64,000 nt of DNA from Candidatus Pacearchaeota archaeon (GTDB lineage: Archaea; Nanobdellota; Nanobdellia; Pacearchaeales; GW2011-AR1), in assembly GCA_050302495.1 (NCBI GenBank), contig JBNLBP010000001.1, forward strand, positions 127,269 to 191,268, written 5' to 3'. The translations under genes and the position numbers were made by a program. Numbering within the stretch: the first letter of the stretch is position 1; every line of letters begins with the position of its first letter. The notes beneath the pieces were generated by a model. The model was not told the origin of the DNA, did no database searches, and worked only from the letters and a program-made list of their open reading frames with translations. Below are positions 16,147 through 49,432 of the stretch, piece by piece.

Positions 16147-16148
16147 AG

Positions 16149-18940: not shown

Positions 18941-18995
18941 TTATATGTTTTAGATAACATATTAGTATTAAAATGGAAAAATATTTTGATTAAAA

Positions 18996-32625: not shown

Positions 32626-32678
32626 AATCAGTATTGTTATGACGAAATATTTATAAATAAGTTCAGAGTCATTTTAAC

Positions 32679-32948
32679 ATGAGGATAAAAAAGGTATCAG
32701 AGGTTATAGGAACAAGAGTTTATACAGATTCTGCGGATTACTTTGGAGAGGTTGAAGAAGCTAATCTTTCTGAAAATAAAATTGATGGATGGAGAATAAA
32801 GGTGGGGGGTAGCGTTCTTTCTATAATTGGTGGTGCTCGAGGAGTTATAATCCCTCATAGCTTTGTTAAGTCTATAGGTGATGTTTTTATTATAAGTAAG
32901 GCTGCATTGCCTAGTCAGGAAAGTGTTGATGAATTTCCTGAAATGTAA
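32679..32948 (+). CDS. PRC-barrel domain protein
   Basis: 89 aa. VIGTRVYTDSADYFGEVEEANLSENKIDGWRI and GDVFII are typical. Confidence 0.55.
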   Translation: MRIKKVSEVIGTRVYTDSADYFGEVEEANLSENKIDGWRIKVGGSVLSIIGGARGVIIPHSFVKSIGDVFIISKAALPSQESVDEFPEM

Positions 32949-32982
32949 TAACATTTAAAAAAGAGAGTTGATTAAATTAGAT

Positions 32983-33495: not shown

Positions 33496-33496
33496 A

Positions 33497-34110: not shown

Positions 34111-34770
34111 TTATTTTTTCTTTGTTTTTGCTTCATATGATTCCGCAAATTTTGGAAGAGTTTTGCTAAATGAATCTTGCATCATTTCCATTTCTTTTTT
34201 GATATTGTTTAAGTTATTTCCATAATTTCCTACTTGTTCTAGTATCTTTATTTGAAGATTGTCAATTATTCTTTCTATTCTTTCAAGTCTTTTATCTGTA
34301 TCAGAAATTCTTGATTCTGCTAGGTTCATAAATTCAGTAATTTTATTTATTTGCTTTTCTGTTTCTTGAGTTTTTTCCGCAAAAACTTGCTCGGAAATTT
34401 CCATTATTGTGCTTGTATCCACACCATATCCTTGTTGAGAGTAGTCTCCCTGGTAAGCTTGAGGAGAATAATATTCTTCTTGTGCTTGGGCAAAATTTTG
34501 TTCGGGATATTGTGTATTTTCTGTATAACTTTGATCGGGATAACCACTATTTTGAGAATCTTCTTCAGGTGTTGAAGGCATATAATTTTCTTCCATTGTG
34601 TTGTTGTTTTCAAGAGAATTTTCTGAGGAAACGGCATTTTTTATACTAAGTTGATCGAACGAATCCTTTATTTCCATGGGAGAAACTCCCTCTTCTCGGA
34701 GTTTGTCGAATATTTTGTTTTCGTTTAATCCCTCTTTTTTCAGTTCATTTATTCTCTCTAAAGTACTCAT
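34111..34770 (-). CDS. hypothetical coiled-coil protein with Q/Y/E-rich low-complexity N-terminal half
   Basis: Track ORF. Divergent from the pilus ATPase operon. Confidence 0.4.
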   Translation of the reverse strand: MSTLERINELKKEGLNENKIFDKLREEGVSPMEIKDSFDQLSIKNAVSSENSLENNNTMEENYMPSTPEEDSQNSGYPDQSYTENTQYPEQNFAQAQEEYYSPQAYQGDYSQQGYGVDTSTIMEISEQVFAEKTQETEKQINKITEFMNLAESRISDTDKRLERIERIIDNLQIKILEQVGNYGNNLNNIKKEMEMMQDSFSKTLPKFAESYEAKTKKK

Positions 34771-34790
34771 GTTTTGTTTGTTTTTAATCC

Positions 34791-35159
34791 TTACTGATTT
34801 TCTTTATTAATCATTTCTAAGGGTTGGAACATTTTTGCTTGTTTTATTAATATGTTTAAATCGTCTTTACGAGCAAATTTTGAGAATTCCTCTGAGATTG
34901 TTTCAATGAACGACTTTATTCTAGTGGAGTCTTTTTTGATCATTTCAATTTCCTTCCTTATTTCGGTTATTGTGTCCCTGAATTGTTCTTTCATTTCTAG
35001 AAGGTTATTACCAATTATTAATGTTCTTTCCTTTATCATTCTCTGTTTTTCTTCTAAATCTTTTAGTCTTATGCTGAATTCAGAGAAATATTGCCCGCTG
35101 TAGTCTTGGTCTGCCATTTTTATAACAAGATATTGTACTTTAAAATTGTTTTTATACAA
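34791..35159 (-). CDS. hypothetical coiled-coil protein (122 aa)
   Basis: Track ORF. Heptad-rich. Confidence 0.4.
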   Translation of the reverse strand: MYKNNFKVQYLVIKMADQDYSGQYFSEFSIRLKDLEEKQRMIKERTLIIGNNLLEMKEQFRDTITEIRKEIEMIKKDSTRIKSFIETISEEFSKFARKDDLNILIKQAKMFQPLEMINKENQ

Positions 35160-35191
35160 AACATTTTAAAGATGGTTGGATTATATGATTT

Positions 35192-37480
35192 ATGCAGTTT
35201 GGACCTGATACAAAATTATATTCTAGTGAAGTCCGTAGAGAAGGAGGGGAGGATGTTCTTTATGTTAATTACCTTGGGGCTAGTTTTGTACCAAATCTTG
35301 CAGATTATCCTGAAATAATGGAAAGAACTATCGATTTATTGATTGAAAACCCCAATGTTTCTAGAATTGTTTTTGTACAACAGAAGAACTATAACTATGA
35401 TTTGAAGGAAACAAATTATCTTTTAGAAATTGCTAGGCTTTATGTTTATTTCATTAGACAGGAGAAAATATTATCTCATGAGAGATTGACTGCTGGAAGT
35501 GAAGAGTTTTTTTCTAAACGATATAATGAGATTTTTTCATTTTTATTTAATCTTAAAAAAGATCCTATTGGAGCTTATTATGATCTTAAGAAATTTTTGA
35601 TTGAGGCTAAGGTTCTTCTTGATGACCTTGCTGGGCCTTCTAAATCAGATCAACAAAATTATGTTTCTTTGATTGAAAAAATAATTAGTTTGCTTTCTGA
35701 TACTGCAATTGTAAGAGATTCTCGATCTTATTTAGATGATTATCATAAAGGGGAGAGGGAGATTTATTATAAATTGTTCAAACCTGATTTAATTCCTAAT
35801 TTTACTTTTACAAGGCTTGTTTCCGATTTGCCCGAAGAAGGAGAGATTGTAGATCAATATAAAATTTCAAATAACAAATATGATGAGTCTCTTGTAACTA
35901 TTTTTAGAAAAAAAGAAGAATCTAAATTCTTTTACCATATCGTCCCTCCTGAGAATGCTTTGAGTGAAGACTATTCAAATTTGTTAAATCTTGCAAGAGG
36001 TGTTCTGATAGAGCACCAACCTAAAGCTGAAGAGTTTACAGATACAGAGAGAACAAGACAAGTTTTCTTTAATATTTCAAGAGATCTGTTGAGTGATTTG
36101 GCACAGAGTAAAAGGATTAAATTGGATTATTCTGACTTGAATTTGTTGGCTACCATTCTTGTAAGACATACTATTGGTTTTGGTTTGGTTGAAGTTTTGT
36201 TACAGGATAAGAATTTACAAGATATTTCTTTGAATGCACCTATACCCCAGGTTCCTATTTATGTGAGGCACAATAAATATCATGAATGCACTTCAAATAT
36301 TTTGCCAAGTCAGGAAGATGCAGATTCTTGGGCAGCTAAATTTAGACTTATTTCTGGGAGACCTTTAGATGAAGCAAACCCTATATTGGATACTCAATTG
36401 GAAATAGGTAATTTAAGGTCAAGAATTGCTATTATCCAGGCCCCTCTTAGTCCGGATGGTTTGGCTTATTCGATTAGAAGACACAGGGAAAGTCCTTGGA
36501 CGTTGCCTTTATTTGTTAAAAATAAAATGCTTAATCCTTTGGCTGCTGGTTTGTTAAGTTTTATGATAGATGGAGCTAGAACTATGTTGGTTGCAGGAAC
36601 TAGAAGTTCGGGTAAAACTTCTTTGTTAGGAAGCCTTATGTTGGAAATAATCCCTAAGTACAGGGTTATTGTTATTGAAGATTCATTGGAGTTGCCTGTT
36701 GAAAGTTTGAGGAAATTGGGGTATGATATTTTGAGGATGAAGGTTAGAAGCGCTTTATTAAAAACAACTAATGAGGTCTCAGCGGATGATGGTATAAGAA
36801 CTTCTTTGAGATTAGGAGATAGCAGTTTAATAGTTGGGGAAGTTAGAAGTGTTGAAGCTAAGGCTCTTTACGAGGCTATGAGGGTGGGTGCTTTGGCAAA
36901 TGTTGTTGCTGGAACAATTCATGGTGCTTCACCTTATGGTGTTTTTGATAGGGTTGTAAATGATTTGGGGGTTCCTGCTACTTCCTTTAAAGCTACAGAT
37001 ATAATTACGGTTTGTAATCCAATAAAATCTGCAGATGGATTAAACTCTTGGAGGAGAGTTTTACAGATTTCTGAAATTAGAAAACATTGGAAGGAAGATC
37101 CTTTGAGGGAAAAAGGCTTTGTGGATCTTATGAAATATAATGTGGAGAAAGATGAATTGGAACCTACAGAAGATTTAATCAATGGAGATAGTGAAACGAT
37201 TAAAGATATTGCTTCGGGAGTTAAAGGATGGGCTGGAAATTGGGACGCTGTTTATGATAATATCTTGCTGAGGGCTAAGATTAAGAAGGAGATTGTGGAT
37301 GTTTCAGAGAAAATTAATAATTCTGAAATACTTGAATCGGATTTTAATACACTGTCTAATCATATGTTTCATAGAATATCTGAAGAAGTTATTAGGGAGA
37401 CGGGTTTACCTTCGAGTGATAGAGTTTTTCCTGAATGGCAGAAGTGGTTGAACGGAGAAATTAAGAAACGGAAATTCTAG
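35192..37480 (+). CDS. type IV pilus/archaellum-type secretion ATPase (FlaI/VirB11/PilB family) with long N- and C-terminal extensions
   Basis: Walker A LVAGTRSSGKTSLLGS, Walker B-like VIVIEDSLE and a His-box region. At 762 aa it is about 200 aa longer than typical FlaI. Confidence 0.78.
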   Translation: MQFGPDTKLYSSEVRREGGEDVLYVNYLGASFVPNLADYPEIMERTIDLLIENPNVSRIVFVQQKNYNYDLKETNYLLEIARLYVYFIRQEKILSHERLTAGSEEFFSKRYNEIFSFLFNLKKDPIGAYYDLKKFLIEAKVLLDDLAGPSKSDQQNYVSLIEKIISLLSDTAIVRDSRSYLDDYHKGEREIYYKLFKPDLIPNFTFTRLVSDLPEEGEIVDQYKISNNKYDESLVTIFRKKEESKFFYHIVPPENALSEDYSNLLNLARGVLIEHQPKAEEFTDTERTRQVFFNISRDLLSDLAQSKRIKLDYSDLNLLATILVRHTIGFGLVEVLLQDKNLQDISLNAPIPQVPIYVRHNKYHECTSNILPSQEDADSWAAKFRLISGRPLDEANPILDTQLEIGNLRSRIAIIQAPLSPDGLAYSIRRHRESPWTLPLFVKNKMLNPLAAGLLSFMIDGARTMLVAGTRSSGKTSLLGSLMLEIIPKYRVIVIEDSLELPVESLRKLGYDILRMKVRSALLKTTNEVSADDGIRTSLRLGDSSLIVGEVRSVEAKALYEAMRVGALANVVAGTIHGASPYGVFDRVVNDLGVPATSFKATDIITVCNPIKSADGLNSWRRVLQISEIRKHWKEDPLREKGFVDLMKYNVEKDELEPTEDLINGDSETIKDIASGVKGWAGNWDAVYDNILLRAKIKKEIVDVSEKINNSEILESDFNTLSNHMFHRISEEVIRETGLPSSDRVFPEWQKWLNGEIKKRKF

Positions 37481-37514
37481 AAATATTTTTAAAGTTGTTT
37501 TTTCTTGTGGATTC

Positions 37515-37898
37515 ATGGTTGGAAGTTTTGGAGTGTTTATTCTTAGTCTTTTAGGGAGTTTTGTTTTAGGAACTTTGCTTCTTATGTTGGTTGCTAAGAT
37601 TTTCAAACAGTCTAATGTATTTGTTCCTTCTGTGAAAGTTTCAATTATTGTTGCATTTTTGGGAGCGATAATAAATATTTTGCCCTTGGGTAATTTTCTT
37701 TCTTTTATTTTGGGATTGGGCTTAATTGTCTTTAATGTTTATTTGATAAAGAGATTCTTTAATGTTAATACTGGGAAAGCTGTAGGTATGTGGTTTGTTC
37801 TTTTAGGCTTTACAACAGTTTTGGTTCTTATTGCCATTGTTGCTTTGTGGAGTATAATTGCTAATTCTATTCAACAGAGTATTCCTGCTAATTTTTAA
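37515..37898 (+). CDS. small 4-TM membrane protein
   Basis: Track ORF. Four hydrophobic helices. Confidence 0.4.
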   Translation: MVGSFGVFILSLLGSFVLGTLLLMLVAKIFKQSNVFVPSVKVSIIVAFLGAIINILPLGNFLSFILGLGLIVFNVYLIKRFFNVNTGKAVGMWFVLLGFTTVLVLIAIVALWSIIANSIQQSIPANF

Positions 37899-37952
37899 TC
37901 TTTCTAATTTTTAGAAATATTTTTAAATACACCTTTCATTAGGTAGTTTAGG

Positions 37953-39839
37953 ATGGATGGAAAAAAGGGGTTGAGAGTTCTTGTTTTGGGAATTTTCCTA
38001 TTTGCATTGTTATCTGGATTTGCTTCTGCAGGGTTGTTTGATAAAACTATTGATAAATACAATGTTGGAAATGGGATAACAGGCAATGCGGTTGGAGATT
38101 CTTATTGTTATGGAATTAACAATTATGAGGGATGTGATCAATATTTTGGATCTGGTATTTCTCTTTGCGAGACAAAAGGATATTGTAAGGTAGAAGGAGA
38201 TTTATGTGTTCCCAAAAGTTGTGAGGAGGTTGGTCTGGATCGTTGTGGAGGTTATGGATGTTCTATTAAAACTGTGGATGAATCTGAGCAGAGATTCGAT
38301 AACCCTAAAGATAATTCGGGAAATGGTATTTTGATTTCAAAGTATTATTACGGAGATAATTATACTAATTATGCCTTGGGTTATTGCGAGAGTAAGGGTT
38401 TTGATGATTTTAGAGACGTTGTGGTTGTAGACGATTCTGCAAAAGCTTGTAGGTGTGATGATTATTGGGGCTGTGAAGGCCAGAGTTGTATAAGTGATGT
38501 TTCTTTGGACTTTAGGTGGGAAAGAATTGGTTCAGTTACTTGTATTGGTGATGAAAGTGAGAATGTTTCTCTATGTGGCAATGGTGTTTTGGAATTAGAA
38601 GAAGAGTGTGATGATGGGAATTTGGTTAAGGGGGATGGATGTTCTAGTTCTTGTTTGAAAGAGGAGAATTTATCTTGCACTGATAGTGATGGGGGCTTAT
38701 CCCGTTATACAAAAGGGGAAACCTGTTTTGGAGATCAGTGCCAAGAAGATTATTGTGAGATTCCTACGGCAGTTAAGGAGTTTTATTGTGATGAGGTTAC
38801 GGGGGGATTAAAAAATGTTCTTCTTACTTGTGTGTCACCAAATAAAACTACTGGTTGTTTGAACGGAGCTTGTATTTCTAATAATGATTCTTCTTATTGT
38901 GATGATAAGAAATGTGTTTTGTATGAGGCTGATGAAGTGCATTTTGGAAATTATGCTGTTTTTATTAATTCTTTTGAATCTGTTTTACCTACTAATTCTG
39001 TTAATTTGACTGTACAGGGTCTTAAAGGTTATCAATTGAAAACTGTTTTGGTAGAAGGAGAGACTAAAACTTTTAATGGAGGGGATTTGGTTTTGACTCT
39101 TGGCGAAGTTAATTTGGACCAATCTAAAATTGTTTTTGATTATAGTTTCTCTGAATGTTCTTCGGATTTTGATTGTTCCATTAACGAAGAATGTGTTTCG
39201 GGGAGTTGCGAGAGTATAGGTATTTCAGAATGTGATTACTTAACTGATGATGTTAGGGAAGAGGTAGCTTTTTTGAGAACACAGAATGCTAATATTGCTT
39301 TTGAAGGTGGGGAAATGAGGTTAAATGATTACCTTGTTGTTCCTTATGGAAACTCTTCAAAGCTTTTGAGGTTTTTTTGGATTTACAACACTGCTAGTAG
39401 TTATTCAAATAATAAAGTTGGTTTTGAAGATGTTTTGTCTAATGAAGTTTATTACTCTACCTTTACTTCAACCGATAAGGCTTATATCTATTTTGGAGAT
39501 GATCGGTATAATCTTAATGTTTCAGGTCTTGGTCTTGGAAGTTATATTGTTATAGATTCCCCTCCTGTTAATTTTGAAGAATGTCTTTTGGTTTCTGATT
39601 CTGAAGGAGGATCTTGTGATTCTGGAGAATGTTTTTTAGATGGAAAATGTTATCCTTTAGGATATAGGAAATCTGGAGAATTTTGTTCTGATAGCGACTT
39701 ATTTATTGAACAGTTAGGAAACGATGAAATTTGCGAAAATAATTTTGAGTGTGACAGTAATCTTTGTATTGATGGGCAATGTGTTGAATCTGGTTTGTTC
39801 ACAAGATTTATTAGCTGGTTCAGAAATTTATTTGGTTAA
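37953..39839 (+). CDS. secreted cysteine-rich surface protein with Myxococcus-type cysteine-rich repeat
   Basis: N-terminal signal-like LRVLVLGIFLFALLSGFASAG. CGNGVLELEEECDDGNLVKGDGCSSSC matches the CGDG..GEECDDGN...DGCS..C repeat. More than 50 Cys. Confidence 0.6.
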   Translation: MDGKKGLRVLVLGIFLFALLSGFASAGLFDKTIDKYNVGNGITGNAVGDSYCYGINNYEGCDQYFGSGISLCETKGYCKVEGDLCVPKSCEEVGLDRCGGYGCSIKTVDESEQRFDNPKDNSGNGILISKYYYGDNYTNYALGYCESKGFDDFRDVVVVDDSAKACRCDDYWGCEGQSCISDVSLDFRWERIGSVTCIGDESENVSLCGNGVLELEEECDDGNLVKGDGCSSSCLKEENLSCTDSDGGLSRYTKGETCFGDQCQEDYCEIPTAVKEFYCDEVTGGLKNVLLTCVSPNKTTGCLNGACISNNDSSYCDDKKCVLYEADEVHFGNYAVFINSFESVLPTNSVNLTVQGLKGYQLKTVLVEGETKTFNGGDLVLTLGEVNLDQSKIVFDYSFSECSSDFDCSINEECVSGSCESIGISECDYLTDDVREEVAFLRTQNANIAFEGGEMRLNDYLVVPYGNSSKLLRFFWIYNTASSYSNNKVGFEDVLSNEVYYSTFTSTDKAYIYFGDDRYNLNVSGLGLGSYIVIDSPPVNFEECLLVSDSEGGSCDSGECFLDGKCYPLGYRKSGEFCSDSDLFIEQLGNDEICENNFECDSNLCIDGQCVESGLFTRFISWFRNLFG

Positions 39840-39901
39840 TCTCTTCTGAAAACATTTATTAATTGCTTTTTGTTTTTTATTCTATATAAAAAGGTGTGAT
39901 T

Positions 39902-42076
39902 ATGGTTAATAATTCAAGAAGGGAATCTGATGTTAATGATATACTTAGGAAGTATGAAGCAAAGCTTCAGAATAAGGTAAGAGGTTTTGACTTTGACAAT
40001 AAAAAATATAGTAAGGAATATACAAAATTTCTTTCAGAGAAAACTCCTGAATTATCTAAATATGAGAGATGGTGTAAGACTCTTGGAAGTTTCATAAAAT
40101 TAAAAGTATCTCAGAAAGATTCTCTTAAGGTTAAGAAACATCTTAATTCTGCACATCTTGACATTGAACCTTGGCAAGCAGTAGGGCTTTCTGTTTTTTC
40201 TTTTTTGGCTGTATTTTTTATTGGTTTGTTTATTTCGTTGGGTTTGGTTTTGATTAAAGGGGACTTTGGAGCTTTTCCTACGGGATTTTTTATTTTGACT
40301 GTTTTTGCAGGAGTTTTTGTATTCTATTTTGTTAATGGCTATCCAGAAAGACTTGCAAATCGTTGGAGGTTGAAGGCTAGTTCCCAGATGGTTCCCGCTG
40401 TACTTTATGTAGTTGTTTATATGAGGCATACTTCTAATTTAGAAAAGGCAATAGCTTTTGCAGCAGATAATTTGCAGTATCCTTTGTCTTTAGATTTTAA
40501 GAAAATATTTTATGATGTTGAATTAGGTAATTTTTCTACAATTAAAGATAGTCTTGATCATTATCTTGAAAGTTGGAGAGGTTATTCGACAGAGTTCATA
40601 GAAGCCTTCCATTTGATTGAATCAAGTTTGTTTGAGCCTGATGGTGGAAGAAGAATTTCTGTTCTTGAGAAGTCTTTACAAGTTGTTTTAGATGGCGTTT
40701 ATGAAAAGATGTTGGTATTTACCCATGATGTAAAAGCACCTTTAACAAATTCCTATATGCTTACAGTTATGCTGCCTATTTTAGGGATTGCTTTGATCCC
40801 TTTGGCTTCTGCAATGCTTGGAGGTTTAATTAAATCCTCTCATGTTATCATTTTGTATAATGTTATGATTCCCTTTATTGCGTTCTTCCTTATGGATAAA
40901 ATTATGATCATGCGTCCAGGAGGTTATGGTGAGACTTCTTATTTGGAGAAGAATCCTTATTATCACGAATATACAAATAAAGGTGTTTATTGGAATGCTT
41001 TCTTTTTGTGTTTGCCCTTTTTTGTAATTGGTTTATTGCCTTTAATTTTCCAGTATACTGGACTTCCAGGGGTTTTAGGTTTACAGAATGACTATACCTT
41101 TTCTGAAATAGGGTGGGGGTTATTTGGTCAACAAAAAATATTTGATTTTAAGGTTACGGATACGGGTGTTACTGGACCTTTTGGCCCTTTAGCCGTTATT
41201 CTTGGATTATTTATTCCATTAGGTATTGCTTTGTTTTTCTCAATTGCTTATAAAGATAGAACTAGGAATTTAATCAAGGAAAGAAAGAGAACTAGACAGC
41301 TTGAGAAAGAATTTAATGGGTCTTTGTTCCAGTTGGGTAACCGTATAGGAAATGGGGTTCCTCCTGAATTGGTTTTTGGAAGGGTTGCAGAAAGTTCTAA
41401 AGGTTTGGTTTCTGGAGAGTTTTTCTCAAGAGTTAATTATAATATAAGACAACTTGGTATGAATGTTGAGAAAGCTATTTTTGATTCAAGAAGAGGTGCA
41501 TTGTTATTTTACCCTTCTGATTTGATTGCTACAAGTATGAAGATTTTAGTTGAATCAAGTAAAAAGGGTTTGAAGATAGCTGCGGTTAGTCTTATGAGCA
41601 TATCCGAATATGTTAAGAACATACAAAAAATTACTGAAAGATTGAGAGATTTACTTGCAGAGATTGTTTCTGATATGAAGAGCAATATGACTTTTTTAGC
41701 TCCTTTGTTATCGGGTATTGTTGTAGGTTTGGCGTTGATGATAACTAGTATCTTGAACAAGTTGGATTTGGCAAGTATTGGAGGAGATTCTGCGGGAATA
41801 AGTGGATTTGAGAATTTACTTAATATTTTTGAACTTACAAAGATGATTCCTCCGTATTATCTTGCAATTGCAATTGGTATTTATTTAATCCAGATAATTT
41901 TTATCCTTACTAGGACGCTTGTAACAATCGATGCAGGAGAAGATCGTTTAGAAACAACTTTTAAGCTATCTCAAAACTTAAAGAAAGGAATTGGATTATT
42001 CTTTGTAGTTTCTCTATTTACAATAATTGCATTGTTTATCTTGAGTTCGGTAGTTCTAGGAAATAGTCTTGGGTGA
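39902..42076 (+). CDS. FlaJ/TadC-like polytopic platform protein (type II secretion F-domain family)
   Basis: 726 aa with clusters of TM helices separated by cytoplasmic domains. It follows the ATPase as in archaeal pilus/archaellum loci. The ATG at 39902 is preferred over the track's GTG at 39896. Confidence 0.65.
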   Translation: MVNNSRRESDVNDILRKYEAKLQNKVRGFDFDNKKYSKEYTKFLSEKTPELSKYERWCKTLGSFIKLKVSQKDSLKVKKHLNSAHLDIEPWQAVGLSVFSFLAVFFIGLFISLGLVLIKGDFGAFPTGFFILTVFAGVFVFYFVNGYPERLANRWRLKASSQMVPAVLYVVVYMRHTSNLEKAIAFAADNLQYPLSLDFKKIFYDVELGNFSTIKDSLDHYLESWRGYSTEFIEAFHLIESSLFEPDGGRRISVLEKSLQVVLDGVYEKMLVFTHDVKAPLTNSYMLTVMLPILGIALIPLASAMLGGLIKSSHVIILYNVMIPFIAFFLMDKIMIMRPGGYGETSYLEKNPYYHEYTNKGVYWNAFFLCLPFFVIGLLPLIFQYTGLPGVLGLQNDYTFSEIGWGLFGQQKIFDFKVTDTGVTGPFGPLAVILGLFIPLGIALFFSIAYKDRTRNLIKERKRTRQLEKEFNGSLFQLGNRIGNGVPPELVFGRVAESSKGLVSGEFFSRVNYNIRQLGMNVEKAIFDSRRGALLFYPSDLIATSMKILVESSKKGLKIAAVSLMSISEYVKNIQKITERLRDLLAEIVSDMKSNMTFLAPLLSGIVVGLALMITSILNKLDLASIGGDSAGISGFENLLNIFELTKMIPPYYLAIAIGIYLIQIIFILTRTLVTIDAGEDRLETTFKLSQNLKKGIGLFFVVSLFTIIALFILSSVVLGNSLG

Positions 42077-42114
42077 TTAATAAGATTTATTAAGAATGTT
42101 TTTTTGTAAATTAT

Positions 42115-42285
42115 ATGAAAAAGGGGTTTTTTTTAAGAGGGAAGAGAGGTATTGTCACAGATTATTTGCCTTGGTTAATTATTGGTTTAGCTATTTTGGT
42201 AATTGTTTTTATTTCAATTATGCTTTTGAAAGATAAAGGTACTAGTTTTATAGATCAAATAAAAAATCTTTTTAGGGGGAGATGA
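42115..42285 (+). CDS. small pilin-like protein with class III (KRG) signal peptide, unlisted short ORF
   Basis: MKKGFFLRGKRGIVTDYLPWLIIGLAILVIVFISIMLL. A basic-Gly motif is followed by a hydrophobic helix. 56 aa. Confidence 0.4.
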   Translation: MKKGFFLRGKRGIVTDYLPWLIIGLAILVIVFISIMLLKDKGTSFIDQIKNLFRGR

Positions 42286-42286
42286 T

Positions 42287-42445
42287 ATGGAATTAACTAT
42301 TGGAAATCTTATTAAAATTATTATCGGGTTGATTGTTATTGTTGCAGTAATTTATGGGGTTTATAGGGTTTTTCAGGGATCTATATTTGATTTTTTTGGA
42401 GGTGTGGGAAATACAAGCAAGGTTTTCCTAAGTTTGTTAACATGA
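42287..42445 (+). CDS. small single-TM protein (52 aa), unlisted short ORF
   Basis: MELTIGNLIKIIIGLIVIVAVIYGVYRVF... Its stop and start overlap the neighbouring ORFs (ATGA-type coupling). Confidence 0.3.
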   Translation: MELTIGNLIKIIIGLIVIVAVIYGVYRVFQGSIFDFFGGVGNTSKVFLSLLT

Positions 42446-42918
42446 TTAAGAATAAGAGGGGTTTTTTGCTTGCAGAAGAGACTCTTAAAATTGTTATTGC
42501 TGTAATTGCTATAGCTTTTCTGATTTATTTTTTAACTAGTCTTTATTTTGCAAAAGTCAATGGGGATAAAAAACTTCAGGCAGATAATTTGATTGAAACA
42601 CTTAAACCTAAATTAAACAATCTTTCAGAAGGAAGTGTGGATAATATTGATGTCTTTAACCCAAAAGGGTGGTATATTTTTAGTTATATAAGTTCAAATG
42701 TGGGGCCTAATGCTTGCGCAGGCAATAATTGCATCTGTATTTGTGATAATGCTTGGGATCTTGATGGAAGGTTTAATAGACAACAAAAAGAATGTGATAA
42801 GGACGGGGTTTGTTATATTCGTTATGATTTTGGAGCTTTTGACCCTATAAGTATTACAGGAGATTTAAAGATAATCAATATTGTTAAATCAGGGGGAAAG
42901 ATTTATTTTCAAGGATAA
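42442..42918 (+). CDS. pilin-like protein with class III signal peptide (KNKRG-FLLAEE) and Cys-rich C-terminal domain
   Basis: N-terminal MIKNKRGFLLAEETLKIVIAVIAIAF has G followed by FxxxE, like type IV prepilins. C-terminal CxGNNCICICDNAW. Confidence 0.6.
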   Translation: MIKNKRGFLLAEETLKIVIAVIAIAFLIYFLTSLYFAKVNGDKKLQADNLIETLKPKLNNLSEGSVDNIDVFNPKGWYIFSYISSNVGPNACAGNNCICICDNAWDLDGRFNRQQKECDKDGVCYIRYDFGAFDPISITGDLKIINIVKSGGKIYFQG

Positions 42919-42924
42919 TCTTTT

Positions 42925-43032
42925 ATGAATATGGATTTAGATGAAATGATAAAGTATATAATTTGGGTTGTTGTCTTTGCTATAGCCCTTTTTGGAATTT
43001 ACACTTTATTAAAGAAAATGGGTATTGCTTAA
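42925..43032 (+). CDS. small single-TM protein (35 aa), unlisted short ORF
   Basis: MNMDLDEMIKYIIWVVVFAIALFGIYTLLKKMGIA. Similar in pattern to the 42287 ORF. Confidence 0.3.
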   Translation: MNMDLDEMIKYIIWVVVFAIALFGIYTLLKKMGIA

Positions 43033-43033
43033 T

Positions 43034-44002
43034 ATGGTAAATTTATTTAAGAATAGAAGAGGTGAATTGACAACACAACAGATTGTTCTATTAATAATTT
43101 TGATTGCTAGTTTTTTGGTTATCTTGTTTTTTTTATTTAGGTTAAATCTTGGGGGAGATTCCGAAAGAGAAATTTGTAGAAATTCTGTTATAACTAGAGG
43201 GAGTTCTGCTTTGCCCGAAGATTCTACGCCTTTGAAATGTTCAAGGACTTATGTCTGTTTGAGTGAGGATAAAAGTTGTGAAAGTTTGTTGAATCCCGTT
43301 GTTAAGAGGGTTAAAACTGAGAAGGAAGTTTATGATGCTCTTGCTGAAGAAATGGCTTTGTGTTGGTGGACTTTTGGCGAAGGTAAGGTTGATTATGTTG
43401 GAGAACAGATTACTCACGAAAATTATTGTTCTATTTGTTCTCAGATAGCCTTTGATGATAGTGTTTTATCTATAGAAGATGATTCTGGAGATCTTGTTTT
43501 TTCTGATGGGAAGATTAGTAAAGATAAACTTTATGATTATTTATCTCAGAGAGAATATTCTGATGGATTAACTTATGCACAATATCTTTTTGGTACTAAC
43601 GACGTTAATGGATTGAAAAACGAAATTATCCAGAGCCAGGATTTGAACAACGAGGTTAGTACTTTTGGGGAGATAGAAATTAACAAGCAGTATTATGTTG
43701 TTATGGGCATTGTAAGTGAATTGAGTACTTGGAAGTTGGCTTTGATAGGTGCAAGTGTGGGTGTTGTGGCCATTCCTGTTTTGGGTGCAAGTTATGTTGG
43801 TGGAGCTATTTTGATTGCAGGAGGGGGAACTTTAGGAGGAACAGTTGGAGGAGATCTTTCGGATTTATTTAATCCTGAGATTGGAGCCATAATTATTAAA
43901 GGAAATGGAATAGATAATTCATTTATGGCACCTACAATACAGGAAATAGATTCCGATAAATTTAATGCTCTTGGGTGTGATAAGATATTAACTTTAAATT
44001 GA
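43034..44002 (+). CDS. pilin-like protein with class III signal peptide (KNRRG-ELTTQQ)
   Basis: MVNLFKNRRGELTTQQIVLLIILIASFLVILFF. C-terminal G-rich segment. The ATG at 43034 is preferred over the track's TTG. Confidence 0.55.
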   Translation: MVNLFKNRRGELTTQQIVLLIILIASFLVILFFLFRLNLGGDSEREICRNSVITRGSSALPEDSTPLKCSRTYVCLSEDKSCESLLNPVVKRVKTEKEVYDALAEEMALCWWTFGEGKVDYVGEQITHENYCSICSQIAFDDSVLSIEDDSGDLVFSDGKISKDKLYDYLSQREYSDGLTYAQYLFGTNDVNGLKNEIIQSQDLNNEVSTFGEIEINKQYYVVMGIVSELSTWKLALIGASVGVVAIPVLGASYVGGAILIAGGGTLGGTVGGDLSDLFNPEIGAIIIKGNGIDNSFMAPTIQEIDSDKFNALGCDKILTLN

Positions 44003-44059
44003 CTATATTATTTGGAAAGCGATAGAAACTTTTATTAATAAAAATATTCTTGAGGTTGT

Positions 44060-46441
44060 ATGAAGAGGATTGTATTATTTGGTCTTTTGGGGTTATTTTT
44101 TATTGGCTTTGTTTTGTCAAGTCCATTAATTGATGTTGTTAGTCCTTCAAATGGAAGTACTGTAACTACTAATTATGCTTATGTTAATTTTACAGTTAAT
44201 GATAGTTCTGGTTTAAATGTATCTTCTTGGTTTAATTGGAATAACTCTTTAGCTGGTTATTGGTCAATGGATTATTATAATGGTACTGGAATTTATGATA
44301 ATTCAAGTAATGGATTGTTTGGAACTTTTGAAGGGGATTTGTCTTCTAATAATATTTCTTTAGGATCTCGAGGCAACTCCACTATTTTTGAGAACAGTGA
44401 GGGTTATATTAATATTTCTGATGGTTCGCCTTTAAATATTTCAAGTAATTTTACTTTTTCGGTTTGGGTTAATTTGAATAATTCTGATCAGCTTGAAACT
44501 ATTTTGGAAAAGGATGGTTACCGTGTTGGAATATCTGGTGGAAATGTTCCTTATTTTGAAGTAATTTCTAATAACACACTCACTAATTGGGTTAACACCG
44601 GAGATGTTTCTGGTTCAAATGTGGGTTACACTCTTAATGTTTACAATGGGACTTTGTATGTTGGAACTGGCCAAACAGGGGGTATTGGGGGTCAAGTCTT
44701 CTCTTATAATGATTCGGGTGATTCTTGGTCTCAGATTGGAGATTTGTCGAGTGTTGGGTTTAATGGGGCGGTTACAGCTTTGACCGTTTTTGAAGATAGA
44801 TTATATGTTGCCAATTATTCTGCGGATGTTGTTTTTGCTTATAATTTTTCTACTGGAAATTGGACTAATGCGGGTAACTTTTCTAGCACTAGTGGTCAGA
44901 GGATGTTACTTGTTTATAACAATGATTTATATTCTACGGATAGGACTGATGATCCTATTTTGTCTGTTTATAACTCTTCAAACAATTCTTGGACCGATTT
45001 GGTTACTTTTGGAGGGTATAATGGAGTAAATGCTTTAACTTCATATAATGGCTCTATGTATATTGGTCTTGGGAAAACTGGAGGTGGTGCGGCTGTATTT
45101 TCCTATAATGGGAGTGGGTCTGTAGCTAATATTGTTGGAGGTAACATCTCAAGTGTTATTCAGCCTAGGAGTCTTGGAAGATATGGGGATAAATTATATA
45201 TGGTTACTAATGGTGTTACTCAAGGAGATCTTTATTTTTATAATTCTTCTAATGATTCGTGGTATGTTTCTGGTCCTTCAGATGCTAGTCAAACTATGTA
45301 CTCTTCAATTACTTATTTTGGGGATCTTTATACAGTGAGAAGATTTAATCTTTACAAGTACAATGTCTCTGGAGGTTCTTGGATTACCTATTCTAGTGTT
45401 ATATCTGACCCAACAACTTTGTCTATGGCTCGTTATAAAGGGAAGGTTTATGCCTCTACTGGTCAAGCTAATGGGAATGTTTATGTTATGGGTAATGGTT
45501 CTGGAGTCTTTTCAAATACTTCTCTTTCAAGAAATCAATGGTATCATTTGGCAGGGACTTTTAACGGGAGTGTTTTGCAATTTTATTTAGATGGCGTTTT
45601 GGTCGGGTCTCAATCTTTTCAGGGCGAGGTTCTTGGAGATAGTAACAGTTTTATTATTGGTAGAGGCAAGGGAACCTCTCTTATCTCTTACAGCGTTTCA
45701 AGTGATGAATATTTCTCTGGTTTAATTGATGAAGTATTAATATTTAACCGATCTTTATCTTCATCAGAGATACAATCTTTGTATAATAACACCGATTCAA
45801 CTTTAGGAAATAATTTTACTAGTTTGGATGATGGATCTTATAGCTATAGTGTTTATTCTATAAATTCTAATGGAGATACCAATATTAGTAATTATAATTT
45901 TGTCATTGATACAAGTGTTAGTTCTTCTAGCTCAGGACCTAGTGCAAGTACTCCTCCTACTTCTGGAGGTATACCTTCTAATTATGTTTATAAGATCAGT
46001 CAGGACCAATTATTGGAAGGGTATTCTAGGTTATTGAAAAAAGGAAATAAAGTTAGTGTTAGTGGACAGAACTTAAATTATGTTGTTGAAGTTATTAATG
46101 TGGGAGATAACGTTATAATTTCTGTTTCGGATAAGGAGTATTCTTTGGATTTGGAGGGAAGTGAAAAGATTGATGCTAATGAAGATGGATATTATGATTT
46201 GGAGGTTAGGGTTAGTGAAATTAGAAGTAATGGTTATGCTAATCTTGTTTTTACAGAGATATACGAAGAAATTCATTCTGAGCAGAGGGATTCATCTAGT
46301 GATGAATTGAAAACTAGTGATGAAGATTTTGATGCAAATAATAATACTTGGATCTATGTTTTAGTAATTGTTGTTTTAGTTTTGGTTATTGTTTATTTCT
46401 CTGAGAGTAATCGTTTGAAGCTTTGGTTTAGTAGACGTTAG
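44060..46441 (+). CDS. large surface protein with N-terminal signal, LamG/concanavalin-A-like domains, S/N/G-rich beta-repeat region and C-terminal TM anchor
   Basis: LamG-like signatures FTFSVWVNLNN and WYHLAGTFNGSVLQFYLDGVLVGSQ. C-terminal anchor WIYVLVIVVLVLVIVYF. Confidence 0.6.
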   Translation: MKRIVLFGLLGLFFIGFVLSSPLIDVVSPSNGSTVTTNYAYVNFTVNDSSGLNVSSWFNWNNSLAGYWSMDYYNGTGIYDNSSNGLFGTFEGDLSSNNISLGSRGNSTIFENSEGYINISDGSPLNISSNFTFSVWVNLNNSDQLETILEKDGYRVGISGGNVPYFEVISNNTLTNWVNTGDVSGSNVGYTLNVYNGTLYVGTGQTGGIGGQVFSYNDSGDSWSQIGDLSSVGFNGAVTALTVFEDRLYVANYSADVVFAYNFSTGNWTNAGNFSSTSGQRMLLVYNNDLYSTDRTDDPILSVYNSSNNSWTDLVTFGGYNGVNALTSYNGSMYIGLGKTGGGAAVFSYNGSGSVANIVGGNISSVIQPRSLGRYGDKLYMVTNGVTQGDLYFYNSSNDSWYVSGPSDASQTMYSSITYFGDLYTVRRFNLYKYNVSGGSWITYSSVISDPTTLSMARYKGKVYASTGQANGNVYVMGNGSGVFSNTSLSRNQWYHLAGTFNGSVLQFYLDGVLVGSQSFQGEVLGDSNSFIIGRGKGTSLISYSVSSDEYFSGLIDEVLIFNRSLSSSEIQSLYNNTDSTLGNNFTSLDDGSYSYSVYSINSNGDTNISNYNFVIDTSVSSSSSGPSASTPPTSGGIPSNYVYKISQDQLLEGYSRLLKKGNKVSVSGQNLNYVVEVINVGDNVIISVSDKEYSLDLEGSEKIDANEDGYYDLEVRVSEIRSNGYANLVFTEIYEEIHSEQRDSSSDELKTSDEDFDANNNTWIYVLVIVVLVLVIVYFSESNRLKLWFSRR

Positions 46442-46475
46442 ATAGTTTTTTATATTGCTTATTGTTTTTTTAATT

Positions 46476-46889
46476 ATGGATAAGAGAGGTGCAATTCTTA
46501 TAGAAAATGTTGTTTTTATTATTCTAAATGTCCTGTTTCTTTCTATGATTATTCTTTTTTTGGCTAAGCAATCTTCTTCTGGGGCAGTTTTGGAGGAAAT
46601 TTATGCGAAAAGAATAGCTTTAATTGCAGATTATGCTAAACCAGAAATGGTAATAAAAGTTGATATGGAAAAAGGGTTGGATTTGGTTAAAAAAGATAAT
46701 GGTGACTTTTCTGATGTTGTTCGTGTTGAAGGAAATGTTGTTTTTGTTAAATTGACGGATAAAGGAGGGTATTCTTATAGTTTTTTTAATAATGTTGATT
46801 TAAGTTCTTATCCCGATAGAGACCCCTTAACAAACCAGTATAATGGTTTGTATGTTTTGACTATTTCGAATAAAGGAGGGAATAATTAG
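46476..46889 (+). CDS. pilin-like protein with class III signal peptide (MDKRG-AILIE)
   Basis: MDKRGAILIENVVFIILNVLFLSMIILFL. Confidence 0.55.
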   Translation: MDKRGAILIENVVFIILNVLFLSMIILFLAKQSSSGAVLEEIYAKRIALIADYAKPEMVIKVDMEKGLDLVKKDNGDFSDVVRVEGNVVFVKLTDKGGYSYSFFNNVDLSSYPDRDPLTNQYNGLYVLTISNKGGNN

Positions 46890-46890
46890 A

Positions 46891-47436
46891 ATGAGATTGT
46901 TTGTTAAGGATAAAAAAGGGGCAGATAAAGTTCTTTCTGTTTATTGGTTTGTAATTTTAATTTTAATTTCTGGAGGTGTTTTTGCAATGGCCTATAGTTT
47001 TTATGGAAATCCTTATGATGTAAGGGAAATTGAATCAGGAATTTTGACTGAGAAGGTTTCAGATTGCTTATCTTCAAGAGGTATTTTGAATTCTAATTTA
47101 GTGAGTGGAAGTAGTTTTAGTGAAGACTTTAGAACTAATTTTTTGAATGAATGTGGCTTTAACTTTGATTCTCCAGGTGAATGGAATAATATTCAGTATT
47201 TTGTTTATGTTGAATTTTATAATTTGACTGAAATGGTAAATCCGATTTATAATTTTAGTTCAGGCGATATAAACCTTATTGGCGATTGTGAAATAAAGAC
47301 ACAGAAAGGAAAAGATTATGAAAGGATTGTTAAGTGTGATGAGAAAAGGTTTTATTCTTTGGATGACTCAAATAAACAGTATCTAATTAAAGTTCTTTCA
47401 GGAGTGAGGAAATCAGAAAAAAATGTTAAACTATGA
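46891..47436 (+). CDS. pilin-like protein with class III signal peptide (KDKKG-ADKV)
   Basis: MRLFVKDKKGADKVLSVYWFVILILISGGVFAMAY. AGGAGGG RBS upstream. Confidence 0.5.
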   Translation: MRLFVKDKKGADKVLSVYWFVILILISGGVFAMAYSFYGNPYDVREIESGILTEKVSDCLSSRGILNSNLVSGSSFSEDFRTNFLNECGFNFDSPGEWNNIQYFVYVEFYNLTEMVNPIYNFSSGDINLIGDCEIKTQKGKDYERIVKCDEKRFYSLDDSNKQYLIKVLSGVRKSEKNVKL

Positions 47437-47695
47437 TCTTTTGAAAACCAAGAAAGGGCAGGTAGCGGAAACTATTACTTGGGTTGTTGCAACAATAATC
47501 ATTATCTTTTTATTAATTACTACAATATATATTTCTGGTTTATTGGGGAAGGGAAAAGATATTAGTAAAGCTGATATTGGTCTCTCTTCTTCAGATTCTG
47601 AATGGATAGAAGTTAAAACTAATCTTGCTTATCTGACTAATTCTGAAAATAAAGTTGAAATTGATTTATGGATAAATCAAGAGGAGGGGAATTAA
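47423..47695 (+). CDS. pilin-like protein with class III signal peptide (KTKKG-QVAE)
   Basis: MLNYDLLKTKKGQVAETITWVVATIIIIFLLITTIYI. Confidence 0.5.
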   Translation: MLNYDLLKTKKGQVAETITWVVATIIIIFLLITTIYISGLLGKGKDISKADIGLSSSDSEWIEVKTNLAYLTNSENKVEIDLWINQEEGN

Positions 47696-47696
47696 G

Positions 47697-47984
47697 ATGG
47701 GGTTATTTATGAAAAATAAAAGAGGTGACGTTCCGGTTACTATCTTGGTGATTGGGGTCTTTGTTGTTTGTGGTCTTGCAATTGGAAGTTTTGTTTATTC
47801 TTCTGTTTTGATGAATAAATCTTTTGAGGGTGTTGATTTAGTTGGTAAAGCTAATGTAGAAATTGAAAGAGATTCTCTTGATTATTATCATTATCAAGCA
47901 AATAAAACCAAATTCTCTTTTAATCTTGATTTTGATTTTTTTAAGGAAGTTCCAACATTTTCTATAGAATATTTTGGAGGATGA
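47697..47984 (+). CDS. pilin-like protein with class III signal peptide (KNKRG-DVPV)
   Basis: MGLFMKNKRGDVPVTILVIGVFVVCGLAIGSFVY. Confidence 0.5.
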   Translation: MGLFMKNKRGDVPVTILVIGVFVVCGLAIGSFVYSSVLMNKSFEGVDLVGKANVEIERDSLDYYHYQANKTKFSFNLDFDFFKEVPTFSIEYFGG

Positions 47985-48041
47985 TGAGAAAGGTTTTTAA
48001 ATAAGATTGGTTTAGTTTATACATTGGTGTAAAAGAGGAAA

Positions 48042-48392
48042 ATGATAAAAAATAAGCGTGGACAGGGTATGAGTACTAGTACTATTATTTTACTTATACT
48101 TGGTTTGATAATTCTTGTGGTTTTGGTTTTAGGATTTACTTTAGGTTGGAATAGGCTTGTGCCTTTTGTTAAAAATTCGAATAATCTTGATTCGGTTAAG
48201 GCTTCATGTAGTATTGCCTGTTCTACTAATAATCAGTATGATTATTGTGTTGTGACAAGATCTGTTAAGGATGGTGTAAACGATAATTTTGAGGCTACAT
48301 GTAATGCTTTGGCAACTGAGCAGACTTATTCAGATAGATTGTATGGTGTTGCATCTTGTCCAGAAATAGATTGTACAGTTTCATCTCAATAA
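48042..48392 (+). CDS. pilin-like protein with class III signal peptide (KNKRG-QGMS) and Cys-rich C-terminus
   Basis: MIKNKRGQGMSTSTIILLILGLIILVVLVLGF. Six Cys in the C-terminal 70 aa. Confidence 0.55.
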   Translation: MIKNKRGQGMSTSTIILLILGLIILVVLVLGFTLGWNRLVPFVKNSNNLDSVKASCSIACSTNNQYDYCVVTRSVKDGVNDNFEATCNALATEQTYSDRLYGVASCPEIDCTVSSQ

Positions 48393-48433
48393 TTTTTAGA
48401 AAACTTTAAATTTCTTATTTGCATCGATTCTTT

Positions 48434-48550
48434 ATGGATTATGACTCAGGCTCGGGAAAAAGGAACAAAAGAAAAGGAAAGAAGAAAGATAATAAGAAGT
48501 ATCCTTATCGAAAGGGGGGCAAGTACAGAAGCACCGAGGTTAAGGCTTAA
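48434..48550 (+). CDS. tiny highly basic protein (38 aa), unlisted short ORF
   Basis: MDYDSGSGKRNKRKGKKKDNKKYPYRKGGKYRSTEVKA. Could be a real small basic protein or a chance ORF in an A-rich spacer. Confidence 0.2.
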   Translation: MDYDSGSGKRNKRKGKKKDNKKYPYRKGGKYRSTEVKA

Positions 48551-48595
48551 TTTTATTTAAAATAATTTTATAAACTTTGTAATTCCTTGTTATTT

Positions 48596-49432
48596 ATGAT
48601 TGAGGTGGTGCCGTGGATTTTCTTAGCAGTTATTGCACTAGTGGCAATTGTATTTGCAATATTTCAGGATTGGAGAACCCATGAAGTTGCTAATTGGATC
48701 AGTTTCTCTTTGTTAATATTTGCCTTAGGTTTTAGGTTCTTTTATTCACTTTTATCTGTGGATGGAGAATGGAGTTTTTTATATCAAGGTTTAATTGGTT
48801 TTGGGATATTTTTTGCAATTGGGAATATATTTTATTATAGCAAGATCTTTGCAGGAGGGGATGCTAAGCTTATGATTGCATTGGGAATTGTCCTTCCTTT
48901 TTATGAAGATTTTATGTCTAATTTGAATTTGTTTGCAACTTTTATTTTCTTGTTCCTTATTTCTGGGGCAATATTTGGGATAATTATGGGTGTTAAGATT
49001 ACTCTTTCTCATAGGAAAGAATTTAGAAAGGAATTTTATAAGAGATTTAAGAGTAGCAAAGTTTTGTTTTACATAACTACCTGTTTGGCTATCTTGTTTG
49101 TTGTTTTAGGGTTTTTCTTTGAATTGTTTTTTGTATTGGGAATAATTATTTTTGTTTTGCCTTATTTTTATGTATGGGCTAAGTCTGTTGACGAATCTTG
49201 TATGACAAAAGAAATCTCTACTTCTAGGCTTAGAGAAGGAGATTGGTTATATAGAAATCTTAGGATTGGAAATAGATTAATTAAGGCTAGGTGGGAAGGG
49301 TTAACTAAGAAAGAAATATCTTTTTTGAAGAATCATAAATCAAAGATTGTGATAAAAGAAGGTATCCCTTTTACCCCTGTTTTTTTAATTAGTTTTATTC
49401 TTTTATTAATTAAGGTATTCTTTTTGGGATAA
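48596..49432 (+). CDS. A24-family prepilin/preflagellin peptidase (PibD/FlaK-like) with C-terminal extension
   Basis: First catalytic Asp region FQDWRTHEV. Second catalytic motif GGDAKLM (GxGD-like). Multiple TM helices. A roughly 80-aa extra C-terminal segment. Confidence 0.68.
   Translation: MIEVVPWIFLAVIALVAIVFAIFQDWRTHEVANWISFSLLIFALGFRFFYSLLSVDGEWSFLYQGLIGFGIFFAIGNIFYYSKIFAGGDAKLMIALGIVLPFYEDFMSNLNLFATFIFLFLISGAIFGIIMGVKITLSHRKEFRKEFYKRFKSSKVLFYITTCLAILFVVLGFFFELFFVLGIIIFVLPYFYVWAKSVDESCMTKEISTSRLREGDWLYRNLRIGNRLIKARWEGLTKKEISFLKNHKSKIVIKEGIPFTPVFLISFILLLIKVFFLG

Follow-up and report, generated by a model that had tools for sequence, protein, structure and literature searches.

A conserved gene cluster of a Pacearchaeota archaeon that probably encodes a type IV filament machine

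Pacearchaeota and Woesearchaeota are abundant, uncultivated and ultra-small archaea that may live freely or attached to a host. A complete and nearly universal pilus locus would be an obvious candidate for a contact organelle in these lineages. Here, we analyze a stretch of 64,000 nucleotides from the genome of a Candidatus Pacearchaeota archaeon (GCA_050302495.1, contig JBNLBP010000001.1, positions 127,269 to 191,268; hereafter the window). A same-strand block of genes at 35192-49432 (+), with two divergent coiled-coil genes directly upstream, quite probably makes up all core parts of a type IV filament (TFF) machine in the Pacearchaeota/Woesearchaeota group of DPANN archaea, and this machine is most likely adhesive and of a Tad/Epd-like kind. 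The core is common to hundreds of related species, nearly gene for gene. An earlier reading made from the letters of the sequence alone (hereafter the sequence-only reading) did not take its composition for a described canonical system, but Hamm et al. 2024 (Nat Commun, PMC11291902) had already reported loci of this type. The window contributes one among hundreds of examples of a known locus type; still of interest are the detailed, so far unannotated set of subunits and the possibility of a separate, DPANN-specific TFF subsystem. For the window itself, the result is mostly corrective, in that the LamG and Cys-rich genes inside the block are strain-specific additions.

For the comparative analysis, patterns taken from an alignment of the platform protein were matched against GTDB species genomes, and 80 loci (referred to by L numbers) were fetched from the 468 matching genomes. 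Orthologs were called by BLASTP of the window proteins against the open reading frames (ORFs) of these 80 loci, and ortholog counts given in loci below refer to this set. Proteins closely related to those of the locus were found in metagenome bins with the labels Pacearchaeota, Woesearchaeota, Nanoarchaeota or Diapherotrites, all of them DPANN lineages.

Core components of the locus

The genes listed by the sequence-only reading were all recovered at the same coordinates and sizes, and its central claim, a type IV filament locus of the archaeal kind that has numerous pilin-like genes and an A24 peptidase of its own, is supported. Each part expected of a TFF machine is found in the block: an ATPase of the PilB/FlaI/TadA type with Walker A and B, Asp and His boxes, a platform protein of the T2SSF family, an A24 peptidase with two catalytic Asp residues, and subunits with a class III signal and a pilin-like ‘lollipop’ layout, the last with caveats on the signal regex and on the fold of the heads that are discussed below.

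The block opens with a secretion (assembly) ATPase of 762 aa (35192-37480, +), which matches Pfam T2SSE (1.5e-12) and carries Walker A (GTRSSGKT, 469), an Asp box (VIVIED, 492), Walker B (LIVGEVR, 546) and a His box (TIHG, 575). In a PDB search its best relatives are afGspE (2oap, 1.7e-26, 96 bits) and CpaF (2e-24, 89 bits), followed by FlaI (1.8e-14, 56 bits), and compared with FlaI it has about 250 additional residues at the N-terminus and about 60 at the C-terminus. In NCBIfam, the models for FlaI (121.9 bits, 3.1e-35, cut-off 550) and TadA (120 bits) score nearly alike, both far under their cut-offs. Orthologs in 56 loci are 71–84% identical (median 75%). The distant locus L083 has an ATPase of 750 aa that is 45% identical and aligns along the full length, and hence the terminal extensions are a trait of the family. 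The corresponding ORF in L043 spans 1287 aa compared with the typical ~762 aa, which may reflect fusion with a gene upstream or, since the longest ORF was taken, a wrongly placed start codon.

The second motor component is a polytopic platform protein of the T2SSF/TadBC/FlaJ superfamily (39896-42076, +), which is 726 aa long as an ORF and 724 aa when read from the ATG at 39902 that databases use as the start. It is the sole platform gene in the window, and the same holds for 80/80 related loci, in each case at a length of ~725 aa; the median identity is 65%. The family is large, with thousands of close homologs at 65–79% identity and 1155 representatives of 50%-identity clusters, and at least 468 GTDB species genomes under the labels Pacearchaeota, Woesearchaeota or Nanoarchaeota contain relatives. 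When 46 diverse relatives were scanned singly, 17 matched Pfam T2SSF (best 3.2e-10), which by transitive homology places the family in the GspF/PilC/TadBC/FlaJ superfamily. A profile of the 46 relatives searched against the PDB returned EpsF only, at E 0.87.

Eight proteins of the block start with a short basic leader that has [KR][KR]G at its end and continue into a hydrophobic helix, in agreement with the earlier count of at least eight pilins. The [KR][KR][GA] motif and the family-specific mature N-termini are kept among the orthologs of all eight families. A scan of all window ORFs of at least 60 aa with a loose class-III-like pattern picked up six pilins of the locus, the Cys-rich protein described below and two weak look-alikes outside the locus (4661 and 31945); it missed the pilin p144, and s56 lies under its size limit. 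The bacterial-type G-[FA]-x-x-x-E start, which had been attributed to several of the pilins, is confined to p158 (GFLLAE) and p144 (GAILIE).

Directly after the platform gene lies the mini-pilin s56 (42115-42285, +; leader RGKRG), with a predicted mature form of about 44 aa and no globular head. Its orthologs, present in 63–65 loci, share the N-terminus KKG↓I(I/V)(T/S)(E/D)YLPWLLI (↓, predicted cleavage site) at a median identity of 58%, and no match to the Flp model of Pfam was obtained at E up to 0.05. The major subunit gene of bacterial type II secretion system (T2SS) and Com operons also sits directly after the platform gene. By its size and its position, s56 is likely the best candidate for the bulk (Flp/Epd-like) subunit. 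Three tiny transmembrane (TM) ORFs had been proposed in this region, of which two are real; the third, at 42096-42236, partly coincides with 42115-42285 in a second frame and seems not to be a real gene. The first of the real ones is s56 itself, and the second, s52 (42287-42445, +; 52 aa, a single TM helix), is without the [KR]G motif. Orthologs in 29–30 loci begin with MELTIGNLIKII, as does s52 itself, which has neither a basic leader nor a G/A cleavage motif. Sitting between two pilin genes in about 30 loci, s52 could be a leaderless pilin-like protein or an assembly protein.

The first of the larger pilins is p158 (42442-42918, +; leader KNKRG), which combines the bacterial-type N-terminus G↓FLLAE with six Cys residues that are invariant in the alignment of its homologs. 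L9/L10 are likewise invariant in the family, and E12/E13 nearly so (at least 90%). An AlphaFold2 (AF2) model built with 60 homologs (mean predicted local distance difference test, pLDDT, 87.9) has an N-terminal helix of 54 residues that leads into a beta-sheet head, so that the predicted fold is of the general type IV pilin architecture. All 222 homologs are unannotated, and none of the 60 used for modelling has a Pfam domain. The next gene encodes the large pilin-like protein p325 (43025-44002, +; leader KNRRG, NRRG↓ELTTQQIV), with a likely ATG at 43034 that gives 322 aa and orthologs in 56–59 loci. The N-terminal half is conserved among these, including the Cys residues and CWWTFGEGK, and the Gly-rich hydrophobic stretch at the C-terminus is variable. 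We rejected the idea of a double-anchored non-pilin for p325, given that this C-terminal stretch is not conserved in the orthologs.

The remaining five pilin-like genes follow one another, all on the + strand. These are p144 (46455-46889, DKRG↓AILIE; likely ATG 46476; orthologs in 54–55 loci), p181 (46891-47436, KDKKG↓ADKVLSVYWF; 48–52 loci), the small p90 (47423-47695, KTKKG↓QVAETITW; 29–33 loci, mostly reading KK[AG]↓QVGETITW), the small p95 (47697-47984, KNKRG↓DVPVTILVIGVF; 35–41 loci) and p116 (48042-48392, KNKRG↓QGMSTSTIILL; 42–43 loci), which has a small head with five invariant Cys residues and one nearly invariant in an alignment of 25 orthologs. Apart from s56, the pilins have median identities of 39–49%. 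Some orthologs are considerably enlarged, namely those of p181 in L010, L027 and L073 (376–397 aa), of p144 in L045, L047, L057 and L060 (319–346 aa) and of p95 in L053, L056 and L058 (267–279 aa). This two- to threefold increase in length suggests that extra C-terminal modules have been fused in some lineages.

The block is closed by a class III signal (prepilin) peptidase of the A24 family (48587-49432, +; 281 aa, likely ATG 48596). It matches Peptidase_A24 (1.6e-10) and aligns with FlaK (3s0x, 3.7e-8) through both catalytic Asp motifs, and among 43 orthologs both D28 and the GGD motif reach a conservation of at least 95%; the median identity of the peptidase in the related loci is 52%. The extra C-terminal domain noted earlier amounts to a soluble stretch of ~60 aa ahead of a last TM helix with P-F-x-P, and is kept in the 43 orthologs. 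We take this arrangement to resemble that of FlaK and PilD. The peptidase is the last cluster gene in the 36 loci that span the ATPase to the peptidase; in L030 the match lies on the opposite strand.

In the mechanism that we propose, the eight prepilin-like proteins would insert into the membrane by their N-terminal hydrophobic helix and would be cleaved by the A24 aspartic peptidase after the conserved [KR][KR][GA]. A hexameric ATPase docked on the two-repeat T2SSF-type platform would then lift the processed subunits out of the membrane and into a helical filament at the expense of ATP. The headless, 44-residue s56 would make up the bulk of the filament in the manner of an Flp- or Epd-like subunit, and the seven larger, Cys-containing pilins would serve as low-abundance priming or tip subunits. 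The divergent coiled-coil proteins could act as conserved cytoplasmic partners. Attachment to a surface or to a host cell is the most likely function. The data establish gene content, motifs, synteny, conservation and the fold class of p158; cleavage, assembly of the filament, the roles of the subunits and adhesion are inferred.

Conservation of the core and variable inserts

Across the 80 loci the gene order is near-invariant. It runs from an M50-like gene (-) through a PRC-barrel gene, u175, u208, the coiled-coil genes cc219 (-) and cc122 (-), the ATPase and the platform gene to s56, s52 (where present), p158, p325, p144, p181, p90, p95, p116 and the A24 peptidase, and ends with HIT (-), aEF-1beta (-) and RPA. 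Every pilin has its own ortholog at the matching position across related loci. Hence, the pilins represent eight old and distinct orthogroups in fixed order, and not the expansion of recent paralogs that had been suggested. These eight defined orthogroups, each with a cleavage motif, are concrete targets for annotation models, metaproteomics and cryo-electron tomography.

The motor is the most conserved part of the machine, at a median identity of 75% for the ATPase and 65% for the platform, compared with 57.5% for RPA, 49% for aEF-1beta and 38% for HIT in the same loci. Thus, the constraint on the motor exceeds that on some core informational proteins. The exposed subunits, with their lower identities, evolve faster.

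The divergent coiled-coil genes upstream of the ATPase, which the sequence-only reading had also noted, lie at 34111-34770 (-) and 34791-35159 (-). In the product of the first, cc219, a low-complexity linker joins a small N-terminal domain to a coiled coil at the C-terminus. Pfam Tropomyosin matches it weakly (3.4e-4), and transcription of cc219 diverges from that of the ATPase gene; orthologs occupy the same position in 49–51 loci at a median identity of 39%. The second, cc122, is a short coiled-coil protein with a likely ATG at 35117 that gives 108 aa, as in the gene call of L002, and has orthologs in 53–55 loci (median identity 54%). Pfam, NCBIfam and PDB sequence searches of the coiled-coil proteins, and of the upstream u175 and u208, gave nothing usable.

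The distant locus L083, with a platform protein ~25% identical to that of the window, keeps the ATPase, the platform and several short genes in a row whose products start in a class-III-like manner. It also has two coiled-coil genes divergent from the ATPase, which match those of the window at E 4e-4 (cc219) and 0.046. This joint retention of coiled-coil genes, motor and pilins supports a functional link among them that goes beyond local synteny. One of the genes of this locus (L083:16718-18055, +) encodes a 445-aa protein with a VWA domain and a class-III-like N-terminus (MYKG↓QVSFF), which would be a candidate pilin-borne adhesin and points to adhesion. A VWA domain on a pilin-like protein recalls TadG and PilY1-type tip proteins.

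Three genes inside the block of the window are additions to this core. Two of them occupy the gap between the ATPase and platform genes. The first encodes a small membrane protein with four TM helices (37515-37898, +) that has no family match and homologs in 0/80 loci, and is regarded as a strain-specific accessory. The second encodes Cys628, a secreted protein of 628 aa with 42 Cys residues and a Sec-type signal peptide (37953-39839, +), which matches DUF4215 (4.8e-6) and TIGR02232 (1.1e-12). The sequence-only reading had assigned it Myxococcus-type Cys-rich repeats; one such unit is detected, at residues 207–242 (TIGR02232), and the plural does not hold. Homologs of Cys628 occur in 7/80 loci, at four different positions. 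Inserted secreted Cys-rich proteins in the pilus loci of other genomes (L041:4121-8884, L041:12129-13883, L041:14376-16241 and L069:8536-9909) have in common the motif SAGWF..FW.(K/R)I(T/S)G directly after the signal peptide, and Cys628 carries a degenerate N-terminus of this type, ASAGLFDKTIDKYNVGNGITGNAV.

The third addition, LamG793 (44060-46441, +), lies between p325 and p144 and encodes a Sec-secreted protein of 793 aa with a C-terminal TM anchor, a Laminin_G_3 domain (4.4e-22), 36 N-glycosylation sequons and no Cys. Seven repeats of ~45 aa separate the two LamG halves (residues 199–478). Its eight database relatives match over the LamG domain only, and a homolog is present in 1/80 loci (L004), in a different slot. 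A weak match to TafC of haloarchaeal Tat-fimbriae reflects LamG-domain similarity only and was set aside as irrelevant. LamG793 is plausibly a surface adhesin, but neither a pilin nor a part of the core.

Among the 36 complete loci, the shortest are 9.3–9.9 kb long and free of inserts. Insertions are frequent in the gap between the ATPase gene and the platform gene, which holds secreted Cys-rich proteins in some genomes and UvrABC or a RecQ helicase in others, and so behaves as a permissive site. Given that they are absent from most loci, the 4-TM, Cys628 and LamG793 genes are variable inserts and not core; we read them as lineage-specific surface-protein genes placed into the cluster, and not as machine parts.

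Relation to known systems and competing explanations

Hamm et al. 2024 (PMC11291902) describe two type IV pilus loci that encode coiled-coil proteins next to a CpaF-like ATPase and a TadC-like platform and are conserved across Nanohaloarchaeota, Woesearchaeota, Pacearchaeota, Nanoarchaeota, Aenigmarchaeota and Undinarchaeota (cluster 2 DPANN). In Ca. Nanohaloarchaeum antarcticus, several proteins of the two loci, including coiled-coil proteins, were detected by proteomics in that study. The likeness to the window is one of arrangement, with one or two coiled-coil genes beside a CpaF-like ATPase and a TadC-like platform, and by this arrangement cc219 and cc122 fit the ‘CCP’ genes of that study. 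The arrangement of coiled-coil genes and motor is kept in 49–55 of our loci labelled Pacearchaeota, Woesearchaeota or Nanoarchaeota. The figure and text of Hamm et al. centre on Nanohaloarchaeota, and, as far as the available text shows, they describe neither eight pilin orthogroups in fixed order nor a mini-pilin, an A24 gene at the end of the cluster or a variable insertion slot.

Another archaeal system close in description is ‘System 1’, or Epd, of a 2026 TFF survey (Sivabalasarma & Albers, 10.64898/2026.04.22.720090), which is characterized by two platform genes, numerous pilins, a major pilin that lacks a head and a peptidase of its own, and is reported from some DPANN. By description, the Epd pilus of Methanococcus maripaludis resembles the window, with diverse pilins, an in-cluster class III peptidase, a headless major pilin and adhesin-domain proteins; s56 (~44 aa mature), seven further pilins and the in-cluster A24 gene would fit this pattern. 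Unlike System 1, the window has a single platform gene of ~725 aa, an ATPase of ~760 aa with family-specific extensions and no pilin that matches a curated family. The main text of Makarova et al. 2016 (PMC4858521) does not mention DPANN, Woesearchaeota or Pacearchaeota. The bacterial Tad/Flp pilus (CpaF/TadA, TadB/C, Flp, TadE/F/G, TadV) is also similar, given that CpaF (2e-24) is about as close to the ATPase as any archaeal enzyme of solved structure. Moreover, both systems have one ATPase, an A24 peptidase dedicated to them and a very short headless subunit (here the candidate major one) in which an acidic residue and a Tyr form a pair close to where cleavage is predicted. In contrast to Tad, the locus has no secretin, TadZ/CpaE or TadD, its platform is one fused gene and its host is an archaeon.

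Several points weigh against a type IV filament machine. The platform protein of the window has no match in Pfam, NCBIfam or PDB sequence searches, and its structure model is moderately confident (pLDDT 64). The pilins match no Pfam or NCBIfam model, and a strict regex of the FlaFind type, drawn up by ourselves, passes three of the eight (p158, p325 and p144), the other five having polar residues between the cleavage site and the helix. The pilin head domains show no significant sequence or fold match to solved pilins or pseudopilins. Synteny also has to be read with care, given that the whole neighbourhood, including HIT, aEF-1beta, RPA and PRC-barrel genes, is syntenic, so that adjacency does not by itself make the coiled-coil or u175/u208 genes parts of the machine. 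Finally, according to a groundwater study (He et al., 10.1101/2020.05.14.094862), DPANN genomes lack components of type IV pili. However, this statement most likely reflects an annotation gap, given that no curated model matches the pilins or the platform, and genome surveys that rely on Pfam or NCBIfam can miss a system whose main parts are invisible to them.

The same genes could instead build a short pseudopilus, a piston of the Com or type II secretion kind that takes up DNA or other macromolecules or exports surface proteins, and so serves the nutritional dependence of DPANN archaea with their reduced genomes. The order of ATPase, platform, one small subunit, several larger minor subunits and peptidase mirrors that of bacterial comG and gsp operons, two subunits have the bacterial G↓F/A-x-x-x-E N-terminus, there is one ATPase with no separate retraction ATPase, and very strong purifying selection on the motor would fit an essential role in uptake. 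However, archaea have no outer membrane to cross, the locus has eight subunits compared with five in T2SS/Com systems and none of their outer-membrane or DNA-channel parts, and no ComEC-like channel or DNA-binding component was seen in the window. Moreover, pilin-like proteins of relatives bear modules of the adhesin type (the VWA domain in L083 and the long C-termini of p181, p144 and p95), which argues for binding and not for transport. We consider a pseudopilus, the main rival explanation, unlikely.

A still less probable explanation, and one we regard as very improbable, is the composite organelle favoured by the sequence-only reading, in which the LamG and Cys-rich repeat proteins are integral and defining parts. 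Both genes do lie inside the same-strand block with short intergenic gaps, and large secreted proteins recur in the ATPase-platform slot of L008, L029, L041, L069 and L072. The distribution of the genes speaks against it, with Cys628 in 7/80 loci at varying positions, LamG793 in 1/80 and in another slot, and the 4-TM gene in none; the core locus exists without them, many complete loci are insert-free, and the slot carries UvrABC or RecQ helicase elsewhere. LamG793 is an orphan beyond its LamG domain, and neither it nor Cys628 has a class III N-terminus. An archaellum, the rotary filament of motility, has next to no likelihood. The FlaI model is the best NCBIfam match of the ATPase (3.1e-35) and the peptidase weakly matches FlaK, but the FlaI score of 122 bits compares with a cut-off of 550 and is equalled by TadA, and afGspE and CpaF rank well above FlaI in the PDB, so that the ATPase does not behave as a FlaI/ArlI ortholog. 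In addition, no archaellin, FlaF/G, FlaH, FlaX or FlaCDE match was obtained in the locus or in any scanned window ORF, and the large extra domains of the ATPase contrast with the archaellum ATPases, which are the most minimal ones according to the 2026 TFF survey (10.64898/2026.04.22.720090). Both the archaellum and chance were rejected as explanations.

With an adhesive type IV filament machine as the preferred explanation, a bolder version of it can be formulated, which we put forward tentatively and with more doubt than belief. The locus might be the type example of a distinct, unclassified and DPANN-specific TFF subsystem that gives Pacearchaeota and Woesearchaeota their principal organelle for contact with hosts. 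It would be defined by an ATPase of ~760 aa that has terminal domains of its own, a fused platform of ~725 aa missed by Pfam and a 44-residue Flp-like bulk subunit. Further defining features would be seven fixed pilins with head folds unseen in the PDB, the coiled-coil partners and a permissive ATPase-platform slot for the secreted adhesins of each lineage. If true, this organelle would be under stronger selection than some translation and replication factors.

Genomic setting of the locus

The window is archaeal chromosome with a GC content of ~32%. It encodes RadA, aEF-1beta, an RPA-like OB-fold protein, a split Hef helicase/ERCC4 nuclease, Orc1/Cdc6, both PolD subunits, SRP54 and ribosomal proteins. 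Immediately upstream of the pilus locus, genes for an M50-like membrane protein, a PRC-barrel protein, u175 and u208 (31945-34099) are found in the same place in ~36–50 loci. The proteins u175 and u208 (32968-34099, +) look like paralogs, each with four TM helices and the shared motif PFLLIF..VLFAIL, and they lie upstream in 44–50 loci. A look-alike of u208 adjoins the platform gene in the distant L083, at a BLAST E of 2.0 that is not significant. It is possible that u175 and u208 are accessory components of the machine, but the link is weak. The PRC-barrel and M50-like genes were considered as machine parts as well; their position could equally reflect the general synteny of these genomes.

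A gene of the VKOR family (vitamin K epoxide reductase; Pfam 1.3e-20) lies at 61182-61607 (-). It suggests that disulfide bonds are formed outside the cytoplasm, which would also fit the secreted protein with 42 Cys residues, and together with the conserved Cys residues in the pilin heads it is consistent with oxidative folding outside the cell.

Other observations concern regions away from the locus. At 16050-23396 (+), Orc1/Cdc6 stands directly before the gene for the small PolD subunit, after which come a 5'-nucleotidase-like gene and the gene for the large PolD subunit; this stretch may be the neighbourhood of a replication origin. An ORF for a LAGLIDADG endonuclease (2528-3289) extends into the start of tRNA-Leu(CAA) (3279-3364). 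At 5856-7242 (-), a tyrosine recombinase (Phage_integrase, 8.4e-45) adjoins a short ORF with a fragment of the serine-recombinase ‘Recombinase’ domain; the recombinase could be XerA or the remnant of a mobile element.

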